A stretch of DNA of 64,000 nucleotides. Origin: Parcubacteria bacterium C7867-001 (lineage in GTDB: Bacteria; Patescibacteriota; Minisyncoccia; Phycocordibacterales; Phycocordibacteraceae). Shown piece by piece: positions 2,953 to 33,466 of this stretch. Location of the stretch: positions 214,320 to 278,319 of the forward strand of contig LFCK01000002.1 in the NCBI GenBank assembly GCA_001189095.1, read 5' to 3'. How positions within the stretch are numbered: the first letter of the stretch is position 1; every line of letters begins with the position of its first letter. The notes under the pieces are model-generated. The model was given only the letters and a program-made list of their open reading frames with translations. It did not search any database and was not told the DNA's origin. Made by a program: the position numbers and the translations under genes.

Positions 2953-2989
2953 GCAATACAAAAAGCGCCGAAAGGCGCTTTTTGTATTG
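2953..2989 (+). terminator. intrinsic terminator
   Basis: Palindrome caatacaaaaagcgcc-gaaa-ggcgctttttgtattg immediately 3' of the tRNA. Confidence 0.6.
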
Positions 2990-3244
2990 CGCCGTTGCGG
3001 GGAAGAGAAGCGCGGGGCGCTTCTCGTCAGGAATCGAACGCCGGAGTATGTTTCGCTCAGCAGAGCGAAACGACGAGGCGGTGCCCAGAGCGAATGCGAG
3101 TGTCGACGAGCATTCGACTCGCGGGCGATATGTCGTACTCGACGGTCCTGTCCCCTCACTTCGTGGCCGACACATGCTTACCTTCCCCAGAAGGACACTT
3201 CCTGTCCTTCTGTCCCCAACTCCTCAAAGTGCTACACTATTCTC

Positions 3245-19644: not shown

Positions 19645-19714
19645 ATTGTCAATAGTACACTTTGTAGAAAGGATGATTGAAGATACGGCGCTAAAAGTGT
19701 AGTGTGATGAAATT

Positions 19715-19788
19715 GCTGGTGTAGCTCAGGTAGTTAGAGCATGGGACTCATAAACCCAAGGTCGAAGGTGCAAGTCCTTCCACCAGCA
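19715..19788 (+). tRNA. tRNA-Met (CAT) elongator type (could also be tRNA-Ile2, lysidine-modified CAT)
   Basis: GCTGGTG...CACCAGC acceptor; anticodon loop ACTCATAA; T-loop GGTCGAAGG; CCA not encoded. Confidence 0.8.
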
Positions 19789-19936
19789 CATGTAGTCGCG
19801 TAAGCGACGTAGTGGCATGGTGGAAGGACTTGCAGGTCGCAGGCGCGTCGGCGCCGAGACGGGGTCGCGGAAATTTTCAGCAGAAAATTATCCGTGACCA
19901 AAGCCTCACCAGCACATGTAGTCGCGTAAGCGACGT
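19781..19936 (+). repeat. 30-bp perfect direct repeat (caccagcacatgtagtcgcgtaagcgacgt) at 19781-19810 and 19907-19936, flanking 96 bp
   Basis: First copy spans the 3' acceptor end of the tRNA; the spacer carries an inverted 16-nt copy of the tRNA T-arm (ggtggaaggacttgca); each copy contains a small GTAA-loop hairpin. Confidence 0.7.
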
Positions 19937-19950
19937 GCTAGGCTAGGGAA

Positions 19951-20289
19951 ATGAGTAGCGGCGGCATGCATCACCTTCACGTTCGGAAGCGCGTCTATAA
20001 AAACGTCGACGTATTTCCGAGTCCGGATTCGTTCAAGCGATTTCTCGACAAGGCGATGTATGTCGTCGGTCTTATTTCTCCAATAGCGTTTTTGCCGCAG
20101 GTGCTCGATGTCTATGCTTCGCATAATGTATCGTCTCTTTCACTGATTACGTGGACCGTGCTCGCGCTGGTGAACGTGCTCTGGACGCTCTATGGCTGGG
20201 TACACAAGGAATACGCGATTTTCATCGCAAACGCCTTTATGGCGGTACTTCAGATCTTCCTTATTGGCGCCATTGTTATATATCGGTAG
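19951..20289 (+). CDS. PQ-loop / SemiSWEET-like small transporter
   Basis: 112 aa, 3 TM; PQ motif in FLPQVLDVYASH; size and topology fit a SemiSWEET. Confidence 0.55.
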   Translation: MSSGGMHHLHVRKRVYKNVDVFPSPDSFKRFLDKAMYVVGLISPIAFLPQVLDVYASHNVSSLSLITWTVLALVNVLWTLYGWVHKEYAIFIANAFMAVLQIFLIGAIVIYR

Positions 20290-20365
20290 GTTCTTGCGAG
20301 ACAGCCTAAAAACCGCTACAGTCTCCTCACGGCCTTAGGGCCGTATATGTTTGTGGTCGTTATCT

Positions 20366-20439
20366 GCGGTCGTAGCTCAACTGGTTAGAGCACTCGCCTG
20401 TCACGCGAGAGGTTGCGGGTTCAAGTCCCGTCGACCGCG
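20366..20439 (+). tRNA. tRNA-Asp (GTC)
   Basis: GCGGTCG/CGACCGC acceptor; anticodon loop CTGTCAC; T-loop GGTTCAAGTCC. Confidence 0.85.
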
Positions 20440-20444
20440 CAAGA

Positions 20445-20478
20445 CACAAAGTCCCCGAAAGGGGACTTTGTGCTTTTC
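20445..20478 (+). terminator. intrinsic terminator
   Basis: caaagtcccc-gaaa-ggggactttg followed by tgcttttcg. Confidence 0.65.
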
Positions 20479-20677
20479 GTGGTCGAAGCAGGCGGAGCCT
20501 GCGTCGGGACTTGAACGGCTCGTTGATGTTTTTCTAGCAAGAAAAACCAGCGAGCCAGGCCCGAGCGGAGCGTCGAGCGTCGGCGAGGCGCGAGCGCTTG
20601 GGCAAGCCCGTTGGAACTTGAACTAGACTTCCGCTCACATTTTCCCTAGGATGATTCATAGACAAGGAGAAATAGCG

Positions 20678-20917
20678 ATGATGCGTGCAGATGAACTCAG
20701 GCAGTTCCTCGAAACCCAGAACCTCAAGCCGGAGACGGTTTCCGCGATTGAAGAGCGACTCGCTCGTGTCGTTATCACTGGCGGGCTGCTCGACGGCTGC
20801 TTTTCCGACTGCGACACCGAGCGTGTTCTCGGCGACACGGCACTTTCGGAAGGCTTCACGGAGTTCTACTTCAAGGTAAACGGCATAACCGTACCGAAAG
20901 ACCCTAGCGGCGCATAG
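20678..20917 (+). CDS. hypothetical small protein
   Basis: 79 aa; AAGGAG RBS before ATG 20678; followed by the hairpin gagaccccgac-accg-tcggggtctc. Confidence 0.45.
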   Translation: MMRADELRQFLETQNLKPETVSAIEERLARVVITGGLLDGCFSDCDTERVLGDTALSEGFTEFYFKVNGITVPKDPSGA

Positions 20918-20967
20918 ATCGTTTATGAGACCCCGACACCGTCGGGGTCTCACGCTATACTTTCCCC

Positions 20968-21621
20968 ATGCCTCCCACCAAGGCTAAAAAACCTTCATTC
21001 CTCCTTGTTGCTGGGACGCTTATCTTCGTGCTCGGTATCGCTACCTCCTCCATTGTGTATCAGAGCACGATGAAGCAGAATCGGTCCCATGTTCTTCATG
21101 CGGCGCATGTCGTTGCACTGAATGTCACGCCGTCCGACATTGTTTTGCTCACTGGCTCATCGACTGATGTCACGACATCCGTCTACCAACGAACCAAAAA
21201 GCATCTCATGCAAATGCATGACACTGTTTCGCAAATGCGCTTCGCGTATGTGCTCGGAAAGAATAGTGCAGGAGAGGTATTTTTCTATGCTGATTCCGAA
21301 GATCCTTCATCAGAGGACTATTCACCGCCCGGACAAGTGTACGACGAAGCGTCGCCGCTGCTACATGCAATGTTTACTGATGGAACTGAGCGGATAGAGG
21401 GTCCGATTACAGATCGGTGGGGAACCTGGGTCTCAGCGTACGAACAAATTCACGCCTCAGATGGGACCGTCATCGGCGTGGTTGGTGTTGATCTTCCTGC
21501 AGAAAAGCATCTTACGACACTCATAGCGTATACTGCCGTTCCGCTTCTCGTAGCGATCGTGTTCATCGCGCTGCTCATCTTCGTGCGTCGGGCGCAGAGG
21601 GCTGACGCCGCTTTTCAGTAA
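20968..21621 (+). CDS. membrane protein with extracytoplasmic sensor-like domain flanked by two TM helices (no output domain)
   Basis: N-terminal TM (FLLVAGTLIFVLGIA); about 150-aa periplasmic segment; C-terminal TM (LLVAIVFIALLIFV); the architecture resembles the sensor module of histidine kinases/diguanylate cyclases. Confidence 0.45.
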   Translation: MPPTKAKKPSFLLVAGTLIFVLGIATSSIVYQSTMKQNRSHVLHAAHVVALNVTPSDIVLLTGSSTDVTTSVYQRTKKHLMQMHDTVSQMRFAYVLGKNSAGEVFFYADSEDPSSEDYSPPGQVYDEASPLLHAMFTDGTERIEGPITDRWGTWVSAYEQIHASDGTVIGVVGVDLPAEKHLTTLIAYTAVPLLVAIVFIALLIFVRRAQRADAAFQ

Positions 21622-21666
21622 AATGTAGATGAAAAACCGCCCAGCATATGCTGGGCGGTGTACTCT

Positions 21667-21921
21667 TTAGGACCGAGGAGGCCGAGTACCTCGAGGAGTC
21701 ACGGGAATGTTCCGCACGTCGGTCTCGACGCCACAGTCGGGGCACGAGAATGTGATGTACGTATCGCTTGAACCGTCGTAGTGGTGACTGCGGGTGTAGT
21801 AGAGATCATGCTGGGAGACCAGCAGGACCGCGCCACAGCCCCCGCCACCATTACCTTCGCCGGTGCAGGTGAACTCCTTAGACCAGCCCCGCTGCTTGCG
21901 GCCCTTCTTGATGACTTCCAT
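21667..21921 (-). CDS. small zinc-ribbon protein
   Basis: 84 aa; CTGEGNGGGGCG ... CPDCG Cys pairs; ATG at 21921. Confidence 0.4.
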   Translation of the reverse strand: MEVIKKGRKQRGWSKEFTCTGEGNGGGGCGAVLLVSQHDLYYTRSHHYDGSSDTYITFSCPDCGVETDVRNIPVTPRGTRPPRS

Positions 21922-22327
21922 GGAAGCCTCCTCGTGCAAGATAATCGGTGAACATTTTGAAGTGGTCGAACACGAATTCGTCTTTGCGAGCAATGATCAG
22001 ATCCTTGCTCAAGATAACCGTGCATGTCTTTCCAGCTTCGTTGCGGATAGTGCCGCTTGCATTCCCGATGAACGTCGTCGAGATGTAGTGGCCGCGCGGG
22101 TCGCGTCCGTCGACGGCATAGGTGCCGAGGACGCCAAGCGGCGCGAACGCGAGCCCCGTTTCTTCGGCGAGTTCGCGGACAGCAGTTGCTGAAAGCAGCT
22201 CGCCGTCTTCTTGCTTGCCGCCGGGGAAGGCGAGGCCTTTCACGGAGCCGAGTCGTTCAACGACAACAAAAGCGTTCGGCAGGCCGTTCCAGTGCGCGAT
22301 GATGTCTGCGCAGTAGATGATTTTCAT
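21878..22327 (-). CDS. Nudix hydrolase
   Basis: Nudix box GGKQEDGELLSATAVRELAEETGL. Confidence 0.7.
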   Translation of the reverse strand: MKIIYCADIIAHWNGLPNAFVVVERLGSVKGLAFPGGKQEDGELLSATAVRELAEETGLAFAPLGVLGTYAVDGRDPRGHYISTTFIGNASGTIRNEAGKTCTVILSKDLIIARKDEFVFDHFKMFTDYLARGGFHGSHQEGPQAAGLV

Positions 22328-22340
22328 AGCAACTCTCCTT

Positions 22341-22853
22341 TTAGTAGGTCATGAGGGAATCGATGCGGTACTCGCCGAGCTTTGCGCGGCCATTGAGCTC
22401 GGTGAGCTCGATGATGAACGCGCATCCGGCAACGGTCGCGCCAACCTTTTTTACGAGCGTGCACGCAGCGGCAGCGGTGCCGCCGGTTGCGAGCAAGTCG
22501 TCGAGCACGAGCACGCGAGCGCCAGCGGCGAACGCTTCCTCTTGCATCTCGACGACGTCCTCGCCGTATTCAAGACCGTAGGCCACTTGAAATGCAGCGC
22601 GCGGCAGTTTGCCTTTCTTGCGGACCATTCCGAGGGGGATCTGCAGTCGAGCGGCGAGTGCGCCGCCGAAGAGAAATCCTCGAGCATCGAGCGCCGCAAT
22701 GGCGTCGACCTTCCCGTCCCAGCGATTTGCGAGCTCCTCGATGACGCCCTGAAAGGCGGTCGGGTTCGCGAGTAGGGGAGCGATGTCTTTGAAGACGATT
22801 CCGCATTTGGGGAAGTCAGGAACATCACGAACATGTGCTTTGAAGTTGGTCAT
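22341..22853 (-). CDS. apt: adenine phosphoribosyltransferase
   Basis: HVRDVPDFPKCGIVFKDI N-terminal signature; PRPP-binding VLVLDDLLATGGT. Confidence 0.85.
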   Translation of the reverse strand: MTNFKAHVRDVPDFPKCGIVFKDIAPLLANPTAFQGVIEELANRWDGKVDAIAALDARGFLFGGALAARLQIPLGMVRKKGKLPRAAFQVAYGLEYGEDVVEMQEEAFAAGARVLVLDDLLATGGTAAAACTLVKKVGATVAGCAFIIELTELNGRAKLGEYRIDSLMTY

Positions 22854-22960
22854 TCGGTTACTCCTTTTCAAAGAACTCACAACCTTGGCGATAGTACCTT
22901 GATTCTCTGATTCGTACACAATGAAGTGGTAATGTGTAACAAAAGTAGTACATTATATGC

Positions 22961-23695
22961 ATGCAGCTCAAAACCGTCTTTAAGCGGCTCGGTCTCGGGA
23001 AGCATTCAGATGAGGTCTATACGGCCCTACTCAAATCAAAGCGTTCGATGCTTGCGGCACATATCGCTAAGGCGGCCGGCGTTGCGCGGCCGCAGGTGTA
23101 CCGAAATCTCGACGAGCTTGTTGCGCAGAAGTTTGTGTCAAAGCGTCACGAAGGGAAGAGGACGTACTATCGTGCCGAAAGTCCTCGCCGCATCGACGAG
23201 GCATTCGAAACCGTTGAAAAGGATGTTGCTGCGCTTACACAGCAGTACGCGAAGTCGAAGGAGAAAGCGGTTCCGGAATACGTCCGGTTTCTCCATGGTT
23301 TCTCGGGAATTCGCGCAGTGTTCGATGACGTTATCGATCACACGCCGCGCGGCGCTACCTTTTATAGGTATACGTCTGAACGGGATCTCTCAGCGGTGAA
23401 CAAATATCTTTCCCCCAGCTATCGTGCACGCCGCGACCAGAAGAAGCTCGAGCGTCTTGTCATAAGTAACCCAGTTTCAGGCAAGCAGAAGCGTCCACGG
23501 CTCGAACGGTTCATAAAATACATTGAACCCAGCACAGATCTCTTCGATCAGAACATCATCCAGCTCGTCTACGGCAATCGCCTTGCGTTCATAAATCTCT
23601 CCGCTGAAGAGGCATTCATCATAGAAGACTCTTCGCTAGCCGCCTTTCAGAAGGTTATTTTCCAGCAACTCTATAAAAAGCTCGGGGCGGGCTAG
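22961..23695 (+). CDS. TrmB-family transcriptional regulator
   Basis: N-terminal wHTH (EVYTALLKS...IAKAAGVARPQVYRNLDELVAQKFV) plus a C-terminal ligand-binding-like domain. Confidence 0.6.
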   Translation: MQLKTVFKRLGLGKHSDEVYTALLKSKRSMLAAHIAKAAGVARPQVYRNLDELVAQKFVSKRHEGKRTYYRAESPRRIDEAFETVEKDVAALTQQYAKSKEKAVPEYVRFLHGFSGIRAVFDDVIDHTPRGATFYRYTSERDLSAVNKYLSPSYRARRDQKKLERLVISNPVSGKQKRPRLERFIKYIEPSTDLFDQNIIQLVYGNRLAFINLSAEEAFIIEDSSLAAFQKVIFQQLYKKLGAG

Positions 23696-24078
23696 TTTCC
23701 TGGCTTCTGTGAGTTGCGAAGCACTTGCTGCTTCTTGTGTTCGCGGAGTTCCTTGTCGAGGCGGTCGAGTGTAGCGTCATCGTCGTCTTCGATATCGATG
23801 AAGTCGTCGCGAGCCGGTTTTAACGCGCGGATTATCTCATCGAGCTTGAGTTGAATGGCGTGCGAATCGCGGTTCTGGGTGTTCTGAATAAGGAACACCA
23901 TCAGGAAGGTGAGCACGGTTGTTCCTGTATTAATGAAGAGCTGCCATGTATCGGAAAATTCAAAGAAGGGACCTGAAACAGCCCAGAGCACAATGATGCC
24001 AACGGCGAGCACGAATGTCGCTGGAGCACCCATCGCAAAGCTCGTCGAATGCGCGATCTTCCGGAAGAGTTCATTCAT
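23692..24078 (-). CDS. low-affinity iron permease-like (Fet4-related, DUF) membrane protein
   Basis: LIQNTQNRDSHAIQLKLDEIIRA motif characteristic of this family; 2 TM; acidic C-terminus. Confidence 0.5.
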   Translation of the reverse strand: MNELFRKIAHSTSFAMGAPATFVLAVGIIVLWAVSGPFFEFSDTWQLFINTGTTVLTFLMVFLIQNTQNRDSHAIQLKLDEIIRALKPARDDFIDIEDDDDATLDRLDKELREHKKQQVLRNSQKPGN

Positions 24079-24136
24079 ATCTAAATGATAGCAGAACCCC
24101 GCGACTGGAATCGCGGGGTTCGTGCGTAAGTCTTCT

Positions 24137-24328
24137 CTAGTGATTGCTGCAGCACTTGCAGGTGCCAAGCTTCGGGATCATCGCGATGATGATGAGCACC
24201 GGCCATGCGATGGCTACATACATCGGATTCACGACACCAAGCGTTGAAAGGAGGAACGCAAGGGCGATGAGGATGATAGCAATCGGGAGAATCTTATGAT
24301 GGGGGCATTTGCACGTGTTGGAACTCAT
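24137..24328 (-). CDS. small Cys-rich membrane peptide
   Basis: 63 aa; two TM helices; N-terminal CKCPHH and C-terminal CKCC motifs. Confidence 0.35.
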   Translation of the reverse strand: MSSNTCKCPHHKILPIAIILIALAFLLSTLGVVNPMYVAIAWPVLIIIAMIPKLGTCKCCSNH

Positions 24329-24463
24329 ACGTAGTGAGAAGGGATTACGGATAATCGCACGCTAGTAGCGTAGCACTTCAGGGAGCGCTCATGACGAAGT
24401 CGGGGGATAGCTGGGTCGTTGAAAAAAGCTCCTATATACAGTACGCTCAGGGAGTTCTACTAC

Positions 24464-24539
24464 GCCGTTGTAGCTCAGTTGGTAGAGCACTTCCATGGTA
24501 AGGAAGAGGTCATCGGTTCGATCCCGATCAACGGCTCCA
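24464..24539 (+). tRNA. tRNA-Thr (GGT)
   Basis: GCCGTTG/CAACGGC acceptor; anticodon loop ATGGTAA; T-loop GGTTCGATCCC; CCA encoded. Confidence 0.85.
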
Positions 24540-24591
24540 GTTTTAAACCCAAGAAATTGCGCAGGGCCCGCCCCAGTCGTATAGTTCTTGT

Positions 24592-25050
24592 ATGACTAAG
24601 AAGATACTTTCAATCTTCATCCCTGTTCTCGTTTTACTCGCTGCGGGCGCATACACATATCAGGTACATATTACTGGTCAGTGGGATTTTTGGAACGCGC
24701 CGCCCTCGGAAATAAATATTGCAGATACTGTGCAAGAAGCGTTTCGCGGCACGGACTACTACAAGAATCTCTCAAAAGACGACAAAGAGTACGCCACTCT
24801 TTCTTTAGCGCAGGTATCACGAGCATCGCTCGTGCTCGCAGCTATAAAAGGGCACTATGTAAAAACGGGTATGTACCCAGCCACTCTTGAGGAGATTGAA
24901 TTTATCGAAGATAAATTGACACTCATTGATCCACTTACGGGAGAACGCTTTTACTATCGTCTGCGCGAAGAAGAGGTTGGATATGAATTTTGCTATCGAG
25001 GAAGTGAACGAACTCGTGAGTGCTTTACCAAAAACGGGCCAGTCCAATAG
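24592..25050 (+). CDS. secreted hypothetical protein
   Basis: 152 aa with N-terminal signal/TM segment. Confidence 0.5.
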   Translation: MTKKILSIFIPVLVLLAAGAYTYQVHITGQWDFWNAPPSEINIADTVQEAFRGTDYYKNLSKDDKEYATLSLAQVSRASLVLAAIKGHYVKTGMYPATLEEIEFIEDKLTLIDPLTGERFYYRLREEEVGYEFCYRGSERTRECFTKNGPVQ

Positions 25051-25559
25051 CTAGTCTCCCTTCCCGGTTTTTGGATCCCATCCGAAAAAGAAAGAAAAGA
25101 ATGGGCGGACAGCGGACAGGGGTCGGGGCGAGCCCCGAGTCCGCGAGGCGCGAGTGGTCAGGATTCTTTTGCGAAATGGGTTCTAACCGAGTACCGTAGG
25201 GTCTCCAAAAGGTGCGTGGATAACGTTTATTCAGCGGACAGAAAGAATGTAATACTTAGGGCATGGGAGCGGGACCTCCCAGATCCGCGTCCGACCGCGA
25301 AAGCGCAAGGATATGTTTCTAACTCCGACCTACAGGCAGGCGGAATGAAAAAGAAAACGCGCGATTCTCCCGAAGAGCTGTACATTTACATGCGTCCTCC
25401 GTAGCGAGGAATGGCAGAAACAAAGAGGTGAGCAGCTCGCCTCAAGTACCCTAGGGCTTCATGCCCGAGCCGCCCGACGTCTTCTCCTTCACTGTGAGAA
25501 CGACTCGGGCGGCTTCTGCCTTTCCGTATATAAGGACAAATGGTATAACCGTTTTATTC

Positions 25560-25635
25560 GCCACCGTAGCTCAGTTGGTAGAGCATCTCACTCGTAACGA
25601 GAAGGTCGCCAGTTCAATCCTGGCCGGTGGCTCCA
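25560..25635 (+). tRNA. tRNA-Thr (CGT)
   Basis: GCCACCG/CGGTGGC acceptor; anticodon loop CTCGTAA; T-loop AGTTCAATCCTGG; CCA encoded. Confidence 0.8.
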
Positions 25636-25640
25636 AATAT

Positions 25641-26021
25641 ATGGCCGAAGGCCCGCCTAAGAAGCCCGATCAAGATCCGATGTTTCTCCCGCAGGAACAT
25701 GTCGAGATCTGGCGAGCGTTCATGGCTATGCGCCAAGACCTTGCCGAAAAAGAAGCGCTCATCAAAGGGCAGGAGGAAACAATCCGCAGTGCTGAAGGAC
25801 GCCTCGCTGAGATGGAGAAGCAGGCAGGAATCTATCTAGTTAGCAATCAGCCCACTCGCGAGCAGCGACTCATCGCACTCCTTCGTCAGTCGCTCGAAGA
25901 CATGCGGACTGCGCATCGAGGAGCGAGAGTCATCGCTGATTCGCTGCGAGAGCAGTACGAAAAGCTTGGACGCGAGTACGATTTCGAGTTGAATCCGCCC
26001 AAACCGGAAGAAAAAGAGTAG
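25641..26021 (+). CDS. hypothetical coiled-coil protein
   Basis: 126 aa; charged heptad-like sequence; starts 6 nt after the tRNA CCA. Confidence 0.45.
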   Translation: MAEGPPKKPDQDPMFLPQEHVEIWRAFMAMRQDLAEKEALIKGQEETIRSAEGRLAEMEKQAGIYLVSNQPTREQRLIALLRQSLEDMRTAHRGARVIADSLREQYEKLGREYDFELNPPKPEEKE

Positions 26022-31952: not shown

Positions 31953-32303
31953 ATGCCCTATCAATTTCAGGTGAAGTTCGTTAACTCGCGTGGGGTGATG
32001 CGGTTCTGTAATTGGCCGGTCAACCGTACGGATGGCCAGCTTGAGTGGCGCATGCATAACTACGCTACGATCATAGCTCAAATCGAGGGAGGCCTTGATT
32101 TTGAGGGAACCAAAGCGGTTCTCATGCACTTCGGTCTCTGGTCCGAAGATAAGGAGTATCCGGCGGATGAACTCAGGTTCCTCTCGCCGCATACGCTTCT
32201 GCGTGCGCGGCGACTCCTTGAACGGAGACGCCCGCGTTTGATGGCGCTTCGGCCCATCAACCATCTGACGAACCAGTACCTGTCCGAACCAGAGTCACTC
32301 TGA
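31953..32303 (+). CDS. hypothetical protein
   Basis: 116-aa ORF with a GGAGG-like RBS (ataggaggcaatcATG). Confidence 0.45.
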   Translation: MPYQFQVKFVNSRGVMRFCNWPVNRTDGQLEWRMHNYATIIAQIEGGLDFEGTKAVLMHFGLWSEDKEYPADELRFLSPHTLLRARRLLERRRPRLMALRPINHLTNQYLSEPESL

Positions 32304-32346: not shown

Positions 32347-32568
32347 TTAGAGGTTCGAAATCTCCTTAAGATTCCGGTTCGGGAGGTAGAGGATGATGAA
32401 TCCGATGATGATGCCGACCAGCGCCGACCCCCAGTGTATGCCGCCGAGGAACGTATGATCGAATAAATCGAGCAGCACCCATATGCCGCGCCAGATAATA
32501 ACGATTCCGAATACGATACCTGCGTTATGAGCAAAGTATCCGAGGGAAAGGGTTGAATTCTTTTTCAT
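32347..32568 (-). CDS. small membrane protein (2 TM)
   Basis: 73 aa from Met MKKNSTLSLGYFAHNAGIVFGIVIIW... Confidence 0.4.
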   Translation of the reverse strand: MKKNSTLSLGYFAHNAGIVFGIVIIWRGIWVLLDLFDHTFLGGIHWGSALVGIIIGFIILYLPNRNLKEISNL

Positions 32569-32657
32569 GTTCCTATTGTACGGCACGTTGGTTGAAAAAC
32601 CCTCCTTTTTCCGGTATCGTGCGTCAATCGCGGGCCCGCGCCCGCTTTGTGCTACAT

Positions 32658-32677
32658 TGCCAGATCGTCTAATGGTA
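32658..32677 (+). other. tRNA-Gln 5' fragment (acceptor 5' strand + D-arm), detached
   Basis: tgccaga-tc-gtc-taatggta; identical to the 5' part of the downstream tRNA-Gln except for the acceptor; its complement (tctggca) is found at 32867-32873. Confidence 0.5.
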
Positions 32678-32720
32678 AGTGGAAACTTGCTATCGGCGCT
32701 CGCTCGGAAGTGTTCTGTGC

Positions 32721-32791
32721 TGCGGAATCGTCTAATGGTAGGACGCATCCCTCTGGAGGATGTTATCTAGGTTCGAGTCCTAGTTCCGCAG
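32721..32791 (+). tRNA. tRNA-Gln (CTG), complete
   Basis: Acceptor tgcggaa/ttccgca; 3-bp D stem typical of tRNA-Gln; anticodon loop CTCTGGA; T-loop GGTTCGAGTCC. Confidence 0.8.
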
Positions 32792-32820
32792 CACAGCACA
32801 TTTCACTCACTCGCTTGATA

Positions 32821-32874
32821 GTAGGACGCATCCCTCTGGAGGATGTTATCTAGGTTCGAGTCCTAGTCTGGCAG
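32821..32874 (+). tRNA. tRNA-Gln (CTG) 3' portion (D-arm to acceptor 3' strand), lacking a contiguous 5' acceptor
   Basis: gtaggacgcatccctctggaggatgttatctaggttcgagtcctag is identical to the complete copy, then tctggca-g; the matching 5' half lies 160 nt upstream. Confidence 0.55.
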
Positions 32875-32899
32875 CAAAACGCATATACGAAAACCCCGG

Positions 32900-33466
32900 C
32901 TATTGCCGGGGTGGAGTTTCGTTGTTCGGAAATTGAACTACATTTGTATCGTCATATTGTGAGAGATCAAGACGCAGCTCGTACCGAACTTCAAGTTTTA
33001 TACGAAGAGCATCGCGTTCTTCACGAATCTTAGGAATACGTTCTTCGAGAAGCGGTTGGACGCCGAGCCTGATAATGTCGGCTCTAGCACAAAGAGCATC
33101 TCCTCCAGGCATCTTATAAATACCCGGAGCACTTTCTCCTGAAACATATCGCCGGATGGTGTACGGTGTCGTGTTGCAGAGTTCAGCGATTACGTTTGAG
33201 TCGAGCTCACAGTGATGAACTGCTGCATGCATGATCATGGTGAACGCCAAACGGTTTTCGTTGAAAGAAAGATCCCTCTTCGTGATGAGTGTGAGCAGAT
33301 CTTCTTGCTTCATGAGAAGTCGACTGAGCTTTCCCAGCAGAAGCATGTCAGGGTCGTTTTCTGCCCCGACAGATTTTTCATCAGACATTGGTTTATCTCC
33401 AAAGTTCGAGTTTCTACTGAAGAGGGTATGTATAAGCGCATTGGACGTCAAGGAAGGTTCCAACAT
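32900..33466 (-). CDS. hypothetical protein with possible HTH
   Basis: 188-aa ORF; helix-turn-helix-like segment LCNTTPYTIRRYV; no confident family. Confidence 0.35.
   Translation of the reverse strand: MLEPSLTSNALIHTLFSRNSNFGDKPMSDEKSVGAENDPDMLLLGKLSRLLMKQEDLLTLITKRDLSFNENRLAFTMIMHAAVHHCELDSNVIAELCNTTPYTIRRYVSGESAPGIYKMPGGDALCARADIIRLGVQPLLEERIPKIREERDALRIKLEVRYELRLDLSQYDDTNVVQFPNNETPPRQ

Follow-up and report, generated by a model that had tools for sequence, protein, structure and literature searches.

Insertion sequences and introns in 16S and 23S rRNA genes from bacteria of the Candidate Phyla Radiation (CPR) were reportedly described by Brown et al. in 2015. Tsurumaki et al. (J Bacteriol 2024, PMC11270868) located insertions of CPR 16S and 23S rRNA genes at loops or at the tops or bases of helices; some carry LAGLIDADG or GIY-YIG open reading frames (ORFs), with GIY-YIG ORFs in insertions of neither intron class, many short ORF-less insertions (<200 bp) were left uncharacterised, and the word tRNA is absent from the paper. 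Insertions in CPR rRNA genes are also cited in PMC10714607. Here we analyse a 64,000-nucleotide stretch of Parcubacteria bacterium C7867-001 (assembly GCA_001189095.1, contig LFCK01000002.1, positions 214,320 to 278,319 of the forward strand), hereafter the window, in which a tRNA-Gln gene is broken in its D-loop by an insert that itself contains a complete tRNA-Gln(CUG) gene. The CPR rRNA-gene insertions are the closest described system: the bacterial group is the same, the host is a structural RNA gene and LAGLIDADG or GIY-YIG ORFs occur in some members. However, what is interrupted here is a tRNA gene, and the insertion never comes without an intact copy of its target, which at this locus lies inside the insertion. 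Our literature search, outside which subscription journals largely fell, found papers on CPR rRNA insertions and none on tRNA-gene insertions or nested tRNAs in CPR. We infer that the locus is a mobile insertion in a structural RNA gene, new in its built-in replacement tRNA.

Other known systems share some of these traits. Integrative elements such as prophages and islands insert into tRNA genes and bring a copy of the displaced tRNA segment. As at the present locus, the target is a tRNA gene, an intact tRNA is found with flanking fragments and element-supplied sequence preserves function; but these elements use an integrase, target the anticodon or T loop through the 3' end and supply a 3' segment, whereas the window insert measures 146 bp, has no integrase, lies in the D-loop, brings a whole tRNA and has fragments on both sides. 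An integrase-mediated, tRNA-targeting island was rejected, there being no recombinase among the ORFs up to 3 kb away and no direct repeat at the junctions other than GTA. Bacterial tRNA group I introns lie in the anticodon loop, have lengths from about 200 nt upwards, are self-splicing and are matched by Rfam models. They too interrupt bacterial tRNA genes and at times carry homing endonuclease genes; unlike them, the window insert has 146 nt, 71 of which are tRNA, sits in the D-loop and matches tRNA only. Indeed, tRNA was the only Rfam match in the window and 18 related loci at the gathering score, in 32550-32950 at E up to 10 and in 19700-25700 at E up to 0.1, and group I and II introns were rejected for lack of any covariance-model match at the locus or the 18 related loci. 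T4-type phages encode the free-standing GIY-YIG nuclease SegB beside tRNA genes, where it promotes inheritance of its own tRNA region; the adjacency of GIY-YIG genes and tRNA genes recurs in our sample (see below), but SegB belongs to a phage system that leaves no split target and has no structured insert. Finally, archaea possess multiple-intron, split and permuted tRNAs and mobile tRNA introns (work of Fujishima and Kanai, summarised in PMC10714607). Like the window locus, these genes are disrupted at non-canonical positions including the D-loop, show evidence that intervening sequences move and have helices that join the ends; unlike it, they are functional and are cut by a splicing endonuclease at a bulge-helix-bulge, whereas the window locus is bacterial, shows no such motif and always has an intact copy. 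An archaeal-type intron was rejected because inspection of the junctions revealed no bulge-helix-bulge: at the 5' junction, a hairpin and 2 nt precede the closing helix and, at the 3' junction, 2 nt separate the closing helix from the D stem.

A reading of the window made from its sequence alone (the sequence-only reading) had described a complete tRNA-Gln lying between the two portions of a second copy, and this nested description holds (Table 1). The complete gene that it placed at 32721-32791, with acceptor tgcggaa/ttccgca, was recovered by both programs used: ARAGORN calls a single tRNA-Gln(ctg) at 32721-32792 and Rfam scores this inner gene (B) at 60.9 bits, against a threshold of 29 and values of 57-70 bits for other Patescibacteria tRNA-Gln genes. 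B has what is canonical for a bacterial tRNA-Gln, namely a cloverleaf, a 7-bp acceptor stem, a CUG anticodon, U1-A72 and G73. The 20-nt upstream fragment is also present where it was claimed, and is the same as the canonical Patescibacteria tRNA-Gln 5' end. The downstream segment ending in tctggca-g, which holds the D-stem 3' strand, the CUG anticodon arm, the T arm and the acceptor strand TCTGGCA, does complement that fragment, and joining the two yields a canonical tRNA-Gln of 71 nt. Some details had to be corrected. The segment said to be identical over 54 nt matches exactly over 47 nt only (32738-32784 = 32821-32867, including GTA at 32821-32823), the remainder being the divergent acceptor strand; and while the break is in the D-loop as claimed, it spans 146 nt rather than about 142, with a direct repeat of GTA (32675-77 / 32821-23) rather than ggta. 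Joined, the outer gene differs from B at six positions, which make up three compensatory acceptor pairs (4-6 with 67-69). The tRNA search that the sequence-only reading had proposed as a check also returned a weak Rfam match of 33.9 bits at 32812-32874; this call arises because tRNA likeness runs on upstream of 32821 (tcgcttgatagta vs tcgtctaatggta, 9/13).

The insert is structured. Folded as a whole, the region adopts the nested shape at -88.7 kcal/mol (z = -4.3 vs shuffles), with a stalk of 13 bp beyond the inner acceptor stem (32707-32720 with 32791-32804). The promoter-like site upstream of the outer 5' fragment is the sole one in the locus, and its hexamers are kept in a sister contig described below (L245; L numbers denote the loci and contigs compared). 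Since the promoter scan of the locus found no such site inside the insert, the inner gene probably depends on the promoter of the outer gene. Leader hairpins occur at the corresponding position in L011, L147, L156 and L195.

Table 1. Coordinates of the features of the nested tRNA-Gln locus, as positions of the window.
Feature	Position	Strand	Remarks
Promoter-like site TTGAAA-17-TATCGT	32592-32620	+	upstream of outer 5' fragment
GC-rich leader hairpin gcgggcccgcgcccgc	32630-32645	+	between promoter-like site and tRNA; listed by the scan as terminator-like
Outer tRNA-Gln 5' fragment tgccagatcgtctaatggta, positions 1-20	32658-32677	+	acceptor strand TGCCAGA, D-stem 5' strand, D-loop
Hairpin Pa, agt-ggaa-act, GGAA loop	32678-32687	+	widened to 32672-32693 in the minimum-free-energy fold
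Closing helix Pb, 5' strand CTATC	32690-32694	+	partner 32817-32821, 5 bp
Joining strand J1 ggcgctcgctcg, C/U-rich	32695-32706	+	motif conserved in element family
Stalk Pc, 5' strand	32707-32720	+	prolongs acceptor stem of B; 21-nt arms 90% complementary
Inner complete tRNA-Gln(CUG), B	32721-32791	+	acceptor TGCGGAA/TTCCGCA, discriminator G
Stalk Pc, 3' strand	32792-32804	+	discriminator G32791 also pairs with C32720
Joining strand J2 actcactcgctt, C/U-rich	32805-32816	+	faint resemblance to tRNA positions 8-16
Closing helix Pb, 3' strand GATAG	32817-32821	+	pairs with CTATC
Outer tRNA-Gln 3' part, positions 21-72 and discriminator	32824-32874	+	ggac...tctggca-g
Hairpin acccggc..gccgggt, ending tRNA unit	32893-32912		scored as terminator only for convergent minus-strand gene

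The sequence-only reading had also called for a comparison with related genomes, and this comparison provides an uninterrupted site. The sister contig L245 (Logan DRR274965) shares four upstream genes with the window; the 263-aa protein is 94% identical and the flank 88% identical in nucleotides over 2254 nt. At the orthologous site, TGCCAGATCGTCTAATGGTA runs directly into GGACAACAGACTCTG, GGTA next to GGAC, with no insertion in the D-loop. Filled and empty alleles thus exist at one site in close relatives, as is expected of a mobile insertion. The end of this contig (L245:2265-2299) falls exactly in the anticodon loop of the tRNA-Gln; the sister may carry a repeat or insertion starting there, because the Logan contig of the window genome likewise stops inside a repeat. 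A route to the orthologous locus through pyrG was abandoned in favour of the 263-aa neighbour, the nearest pyrG relatives not being syntenic downstream, and a homologue search with a 133-aa ORF gave four matches and no further filled or empty sites.

The tRNA alleles also set the window apart from its relatives. L246/L247, L242 and L243 have one common tRNA-Gln allele, which is unlike the window body at 14/58 positions. In L246/L247 this allele directly follows the homologue of the 263-aa protein (g263), matching the order of the window; in L242 and L243, which were reached through the pyrG neighbourhood, the tRNA-Gln is located elsewhere. Both the inner and the outer copy of the window carry an allele other than that of L242, L243 and L246, and the closest tRNA bodies in the sample, those of L013, L031 and L148, show 3 differences each. 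Because syntenic relatives have a different allele, the insert and the tRNA body of the window appear to have been acquired: by these comparisons, the insertion is derived and the tRNA body is foreign. At a background divergence of 12%, 47 identical nt would arise by chance with a probability of 0.88^47, about 0.002, which is unlikely unless the two copies were homogenised recently. Together with the three compensatory acceptor pairs, this identity is consistent with a foreign gene that gene conversion made uniform with the resident one, and not with a local duplicate. The body of the outer 3' part is the allele of the inner gene and not that of the relatives; this could stem from co-conversion of the flanking target, but gene conversion between the copies at a later time would have the same outcome. 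In L223 the outer halves match each other (TGCCGGA/TCCGGCA, T stem CTTGG/CCAAG) and their allele is unlike that of the inner gene; as judged from these alleles, this is a second locus with distinct inner and outer alleles, here without homogenisation.

The flanks of the window insert are homologous to an element found elsewhere at the same site. We define the type-1 element by a 5' hairpin, a closing helix, the C/U-rich strands CGCTCGCTCGG and CTCGCTT, and a central hairpin. The insert of the window has all of these and differs by the tRNA at the tip of the central hairpin: its two flanks correspond to the halves of an element that is unbroken in L003, L011, L147, L156, L229 and L187, and in all seven loci the element lies after the D-loop GGTA. 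The closing helix varies among the seven (CTATC/GATAG, CTAGC/GCTAG, CTGC/GCAG, TGCCA/TGGCA, CTGTC/GACAG), and hairpin Pa has homologues with compensatory changes in the six other loci. When the 5' hairpin and the closing helix were aligned, 95.6% of the cells were paired and 6 pairs had changed on both sides; 0/500 shuffles reached the observed score and slid controls were paired at 26-48%. Coming from seven sequences of about four lineages, these compensatory changes are suggestive, not conclusive, support for the helices. The central hairpins are out of register in the alignment, so column-based covariation was dropped for them in favour of per-sequence folds, in which the hairpin forms in every member, and of a register-free count of stalk pairs. 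In the six other loci the interrupted copy lacks the T arm and the anticodon loop, so that the type-1 element would not be spliced out into a working tRNA there. By BLAST the element occurs once in the window; a repeat hypothesis for the C/U-rich motifs was rejected, the motifs being too short for specificity in 64 kb. A further insert family, found in the D-loop of L143, L173 and L197, in the T arm of L010 and in L229, has hairpin loops GAGCGAAGCGA and CAGCGAGC that complement the C/U-rich strands of type 1 (CTCGCTTCGCT, CGCTCGCTCGG). This complementarity could mean that one motif occurs in either orientation, as a DNA-level element or as a protein site, or that the RNAs pair with each other.

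Interrupted tRNA-Gln genes recur across Patescibacteria. A scan with the outer 20-mer returned at least 119 stretches from species-representative genomes and at least 120 from metagenomes, nearly all of them from Patescibacteria; among the matches listed, TCTGGCA stands at the offset of an uninterrupted gene in 218/249 occurrences. From these matches, the resemblance is not a chance one: the 20-mer is the canonical tRNA-Gln 5' end. An orphan 20-mer followed by an insertion was found in at least 13 sources, the window included, and all orphan 5' fragments with enough sequence (13/13) are followed on the same strand, 63-758 nt downstream, by a complete tRNA-Gln. We then surveyed 282 tRNAs in 1.70 Mb of loci plus the window. 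For 80/282 tRNAs, a stretch of 12 nt or more is repeated exactly within 700 nt of the gene (40 copies sense upstream, 53 sense downstream and 25 antisense downstream, mainly T-arm sequence), although a small number of sense copies are sequence common to adjacent tandem tRNA genes (for example the tRNA-Thr pairs, L047, L077). In 15 of about 240 loci, again including the window, a 5' fragment upstream and a 3' fragment downstream enclose a complete tRNA-Gln. Insertions lie in the D-loop, the anticodon loop or the T loop and belong to several sequence families, and the outer pieces are decayed or incomplete in L005, L054, L195, L219 and the L011 group. The stalk was measured as the number of pairs among the ten positions past the acceptor stem. 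It reaches 9/10 in the window and 9-10 in the window together with eleven loci of a second insert family, which follow the pattern ...CAAAGC[tRNA]GCTTTG...; in 214 other tRNA-Gln genes the mode is 4, and only three have 9 or more, among them the nested L158. The stalk is a discrete hallmark of nested tRNAs. Within the second family, the helices around the inner tRNA vary in sequence between genomes while pairing is kept (from hand analysis only). One relative, 82% by pyrG, has a layered locus (L243:9787-10115): an intact tRNA-Gln, a terminator hairpin and a complete downstream module (see below) are followed by the right half of a second-family insert, with a 3' fragment starting from the anticodon loop, and the left half is absent. 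This layering suggests successive events at one tRNA gene.

Some of the related inserts encode nucleases. GIY-YIG ORFs were found within inserts at five loci (E 1e-14 to 3e-19), and the loci with a nuclease gene in or beside the insert are L102, L119, L126, L131, L135 and L184. A GIY-YIG model built from the insert ORFs detected 30 GIY-YIG-like ORFs in 28/240 sources, 16 of the 30 lying at most 20 nt from a tRNA gene. In L131 (L131:233-1070), a canonical tRNA-Gln 5' fragment of 23 nt is followed by a 232-aa LAGLIDADG ORF and then by a tRNA-Gln(CUG) of quite another kind, whose D arm differs and whose CCA is encoded. This arrangement resembles a nuclease gene that travels together with a replacement tRNA resistant to cleavage.

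We thus propose, as a reading that we hold to be fairly probable, that a homing-like cassette carrying its own tRNA interrupted the resident tRNA-Gln, leaving the inner gene to do the work. The resident gene would have been broken at the DNA level between D-loop positions 20 and 21 by a structured cassette of 146 bp that contained its own complete tRNA-Gln(CUG). Entry would have been by homology-dependent insertion, either nuclease-triggered homing or recombination with donor DNA already carrying the cassette, with crossovers within the 20 conserved nt of the 5' end and close to the T arm. A conversion tract would have replaced the resident body (positions 21-64), imported or converted, so that the resident acceptor strands TGCCAGA and TCTGGCA remain at the two ends. 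Transcription from the resident promoter would yield a single precursor of about 250 nt, in which the hairpin, the closing helix and the 13-bp stalk would prevent mispairing of the duplicated halves; the inner tRNA would be freed by the normal tRNA end-processing enzymes as the working tRNA-Gln(CUG), and the outer halves would be a young relic, not yet decayed. We infer the homing mechanism, the identity of the functional copy and the processing route.

Several observations weigh against this proposal. Neither within the window insert nor beside it is there a gene for a nuclease, an integrase or a transposase: the 146-nt insert holds no ORF, the neighbouring ORFs have no Pfam match, no ORF up to 3 kb from the locus was identified as a recombinase and the GIY-YIG model has no match in the 64 kb window. 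No donor with the acceptor TGCGGAA/TTCCGCA was found, with 0 matches in viral contigs, the sole set scanned; a phage vector was rejected, both the outer 20-mer and the inner 18-mer being absent from those contigs. The six other type-1 members have no tRNA inside, an intact tRNA-Gln lying 15-50 nt further downstream, so that precisely this architecture is seen in the window alone. As the sister contig stops in the anticodon loop, its emptiness is established for the D-loop site and not for the gene as a whole. Finally, the outer halves are flawless and canonical if joined, and a functional interrupted gene would look alike.

Four explanations had been put forward by the sequence-only reading, and an insertion event within the D-loop is the one that we favour, given the empty sister site, the conserved element and the different allele. 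A mis-assembly, in which a tandem tRNA-Gln pair was wrongly joined through the shared repeat, is suggested by the source, a metagenome-assembled genome, and by a repeat long enough to break k-mer assembly. The window is identical to the metagenome-assembled genome GCA_002396685.1 (contig DGYL01000006.1), and an independent Logan assembly (SRR5324955) does stop within the repeat, as expected of a k-mer assembler, the right-hand junction being covered by one assembly. However, the Logan contig reproduces the left junctions, matching every base from the 5' fragment through the insert's left half and on to the 47th nucleotide of B; the unique segments, used once each, leave a single linear path across the two repeat copies; other joins would match non-complementary acceptor strands; and the nested architecture is seen in 14 other loci from unrelated assemblies. 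We consider such an artefact exceedingly improbable. A purely local rearrangement, in which tandem tRNA-Gln genes recombined or slipped in situ with neither a mobile element nor imported DNA, would account for the absence of a mobility gene from the window insert and its neighbours and for the exchange of sequence between copies that the 47-nt identity shows, and the tRNA-Gln loci of relatives often hold several tandem tRNA-derived units. Nevertheless, recombination of tandem genes leaves the homologous insert and the foreign allele unexplained: the flanks match an element present at the same D-loop site in about four lineages, and the body is 14/58 positions off the allele of syntenic relatives despite flanks that are 88% identical. 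The inner acceptor is moreover three compensatory pairs apart where the body shows no difference, and at least two precise deletions would be required to derive the nested order from a tandem array. A local origin is in our view unlikely.

The remaining explanation, a non-canonical intervening sequence that is spliced, would make the locus a functional nested gene: the insert would act at the RNA level, RNase P and 3' processing would cut out the inner tRNA, the outer halves would be re-ligated or used as two pieces, and both tRNAs would be expressed. The intact and exactly complementary outer halves, with no junction nucleotide lost, are what such a gene would show; in the fold (with the energy and z given above), a stalk enclosed by the outer acceptor helix bears the inner cloverleaf, the helices of the insert covary, and the divergent inner acceptor stem would stop cross-pairing between the two genes. 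Yet an intact tRNA-Gln adjoins every interrupted copy, which is unexpected if the insert can be removed, and the outer pieces are decayed or incomplete in related loci, for both of which reasons we disfavour splicing: the six other type-1 loci have lost the T arm and the anticodon loop of the outer 3' part, and the outer pieces of other nested loci miss 3-10 nt or bear disruptive changes. There is no group I/II intron signature, the junctions show no bulge-helix-bulge, and no bacterial enzymes are known to us that would splice an insert of this kind. A functional nested gene is therefore quite unlikely. In a related scenario, which we regard as very unlikely, the split outer tRNA-Gln would still be made, the inner tRNA being excised by end-processing and the pieces held together by the acceptor, D, closing and stalk helices; if this were true, the locus would encode a bacterial tRNA with a tRNA as its intervening sequence.

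The tRNA genes of the window are accompanied by other tRNA-derived sequences. Downstream of a tRNA-Met (2879-2950) lies a module of four pieces (2953-3160): a terminator-like hairpin; gttgcgggga, the exact antisense of the tRNA 3' end including the discriminator and trailer; a hairpin, caggaatcgaac (antisense of T loop and stem) and some 105 nt of insert; and tcctgtcccctcac, a sense copy of the tRNA-Met 3' end. Jointly, these pieces are predicted to fold as a long helix or as a mini tRNA-like unit whose T loop is expanded. Similar modules are found at 19790-19935, downstream of a second tRNA-Met, and at 20441-20640, where the module, downstream of a tRNA-Asp, is more decayed; the module of the second tRNA-Met consists of antisense catggtggaaggacttgca, an insert with gacggggtcgcgg...ccgtgacc, then cctcaccagcac and the hairpin once more. 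Downstream modules thus occur at 3/6 tRNA genes of the window. They are common in our sample as well (L011, L013, L092, L156, L166, L197, L201, L207, L229, L232 at a tRNA-Lys, L243 and others), in the order antisense 3' end, side hairpin, T-loop insert and sense 3' end. Their inserts form at least three conserved families (...CACAAGGTGTACTGAA.CTGTAAG.TTCGA; ...CCGGAG...GAGGC.GTGCCCAGAG; ...GGGGTCGCG...CGTGACCG) with no Rfam match, and their antisense copy is outside what the cassette model explains. A GC-rich segment of about 480 nt between two tRNA-Thr genes (25060-25540) likewise has no Rfam match at E up to 0.1.

As for protein-coding genes, a coding reading of the locus was rejected: the plus-strand ORFs of 67-68 aa and the minus-strand ORF of 133 aa are by-products of tRNA sequence. 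The real protein neighbour is a 73-aa membrane protein, which has an annotation in Parcubacteria bacterium C7867-001. The 162-aa ORF downstream (32900-33388, minus strand) has no Pfam match and its protein is seen in the record of this genome only; the 116-aa ORF upstream (31953-32303, plus strand), also without Pfam match, belongs to a gene found in the sister contig too.

The window locus indicates that the insertion elements of CPR rRNA genes may have counterparts in tRNA genes. Such an element would make up for breaking an essential gene, present as a rule in one copy, by bringing a spare tRNA, which is whole at this locus and partial at others. Cassettes of this type would spread tRNA alleles horizontally, could generate acceptor-stem variants and would leave layered tRNA fragments. 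In metagenome-assembled genomes, the fragments make tRNA genes hard to count: the outer 3' part is already given a tRNA score by Rfam. The small GIY-YIG proteins would be new sequence-specific nucleases if their cleavage is specific for tRNA genes. More broadly, the locus offers a bacterial test case for the origin of split and intron-containing tRNA genes from mobile insertions.

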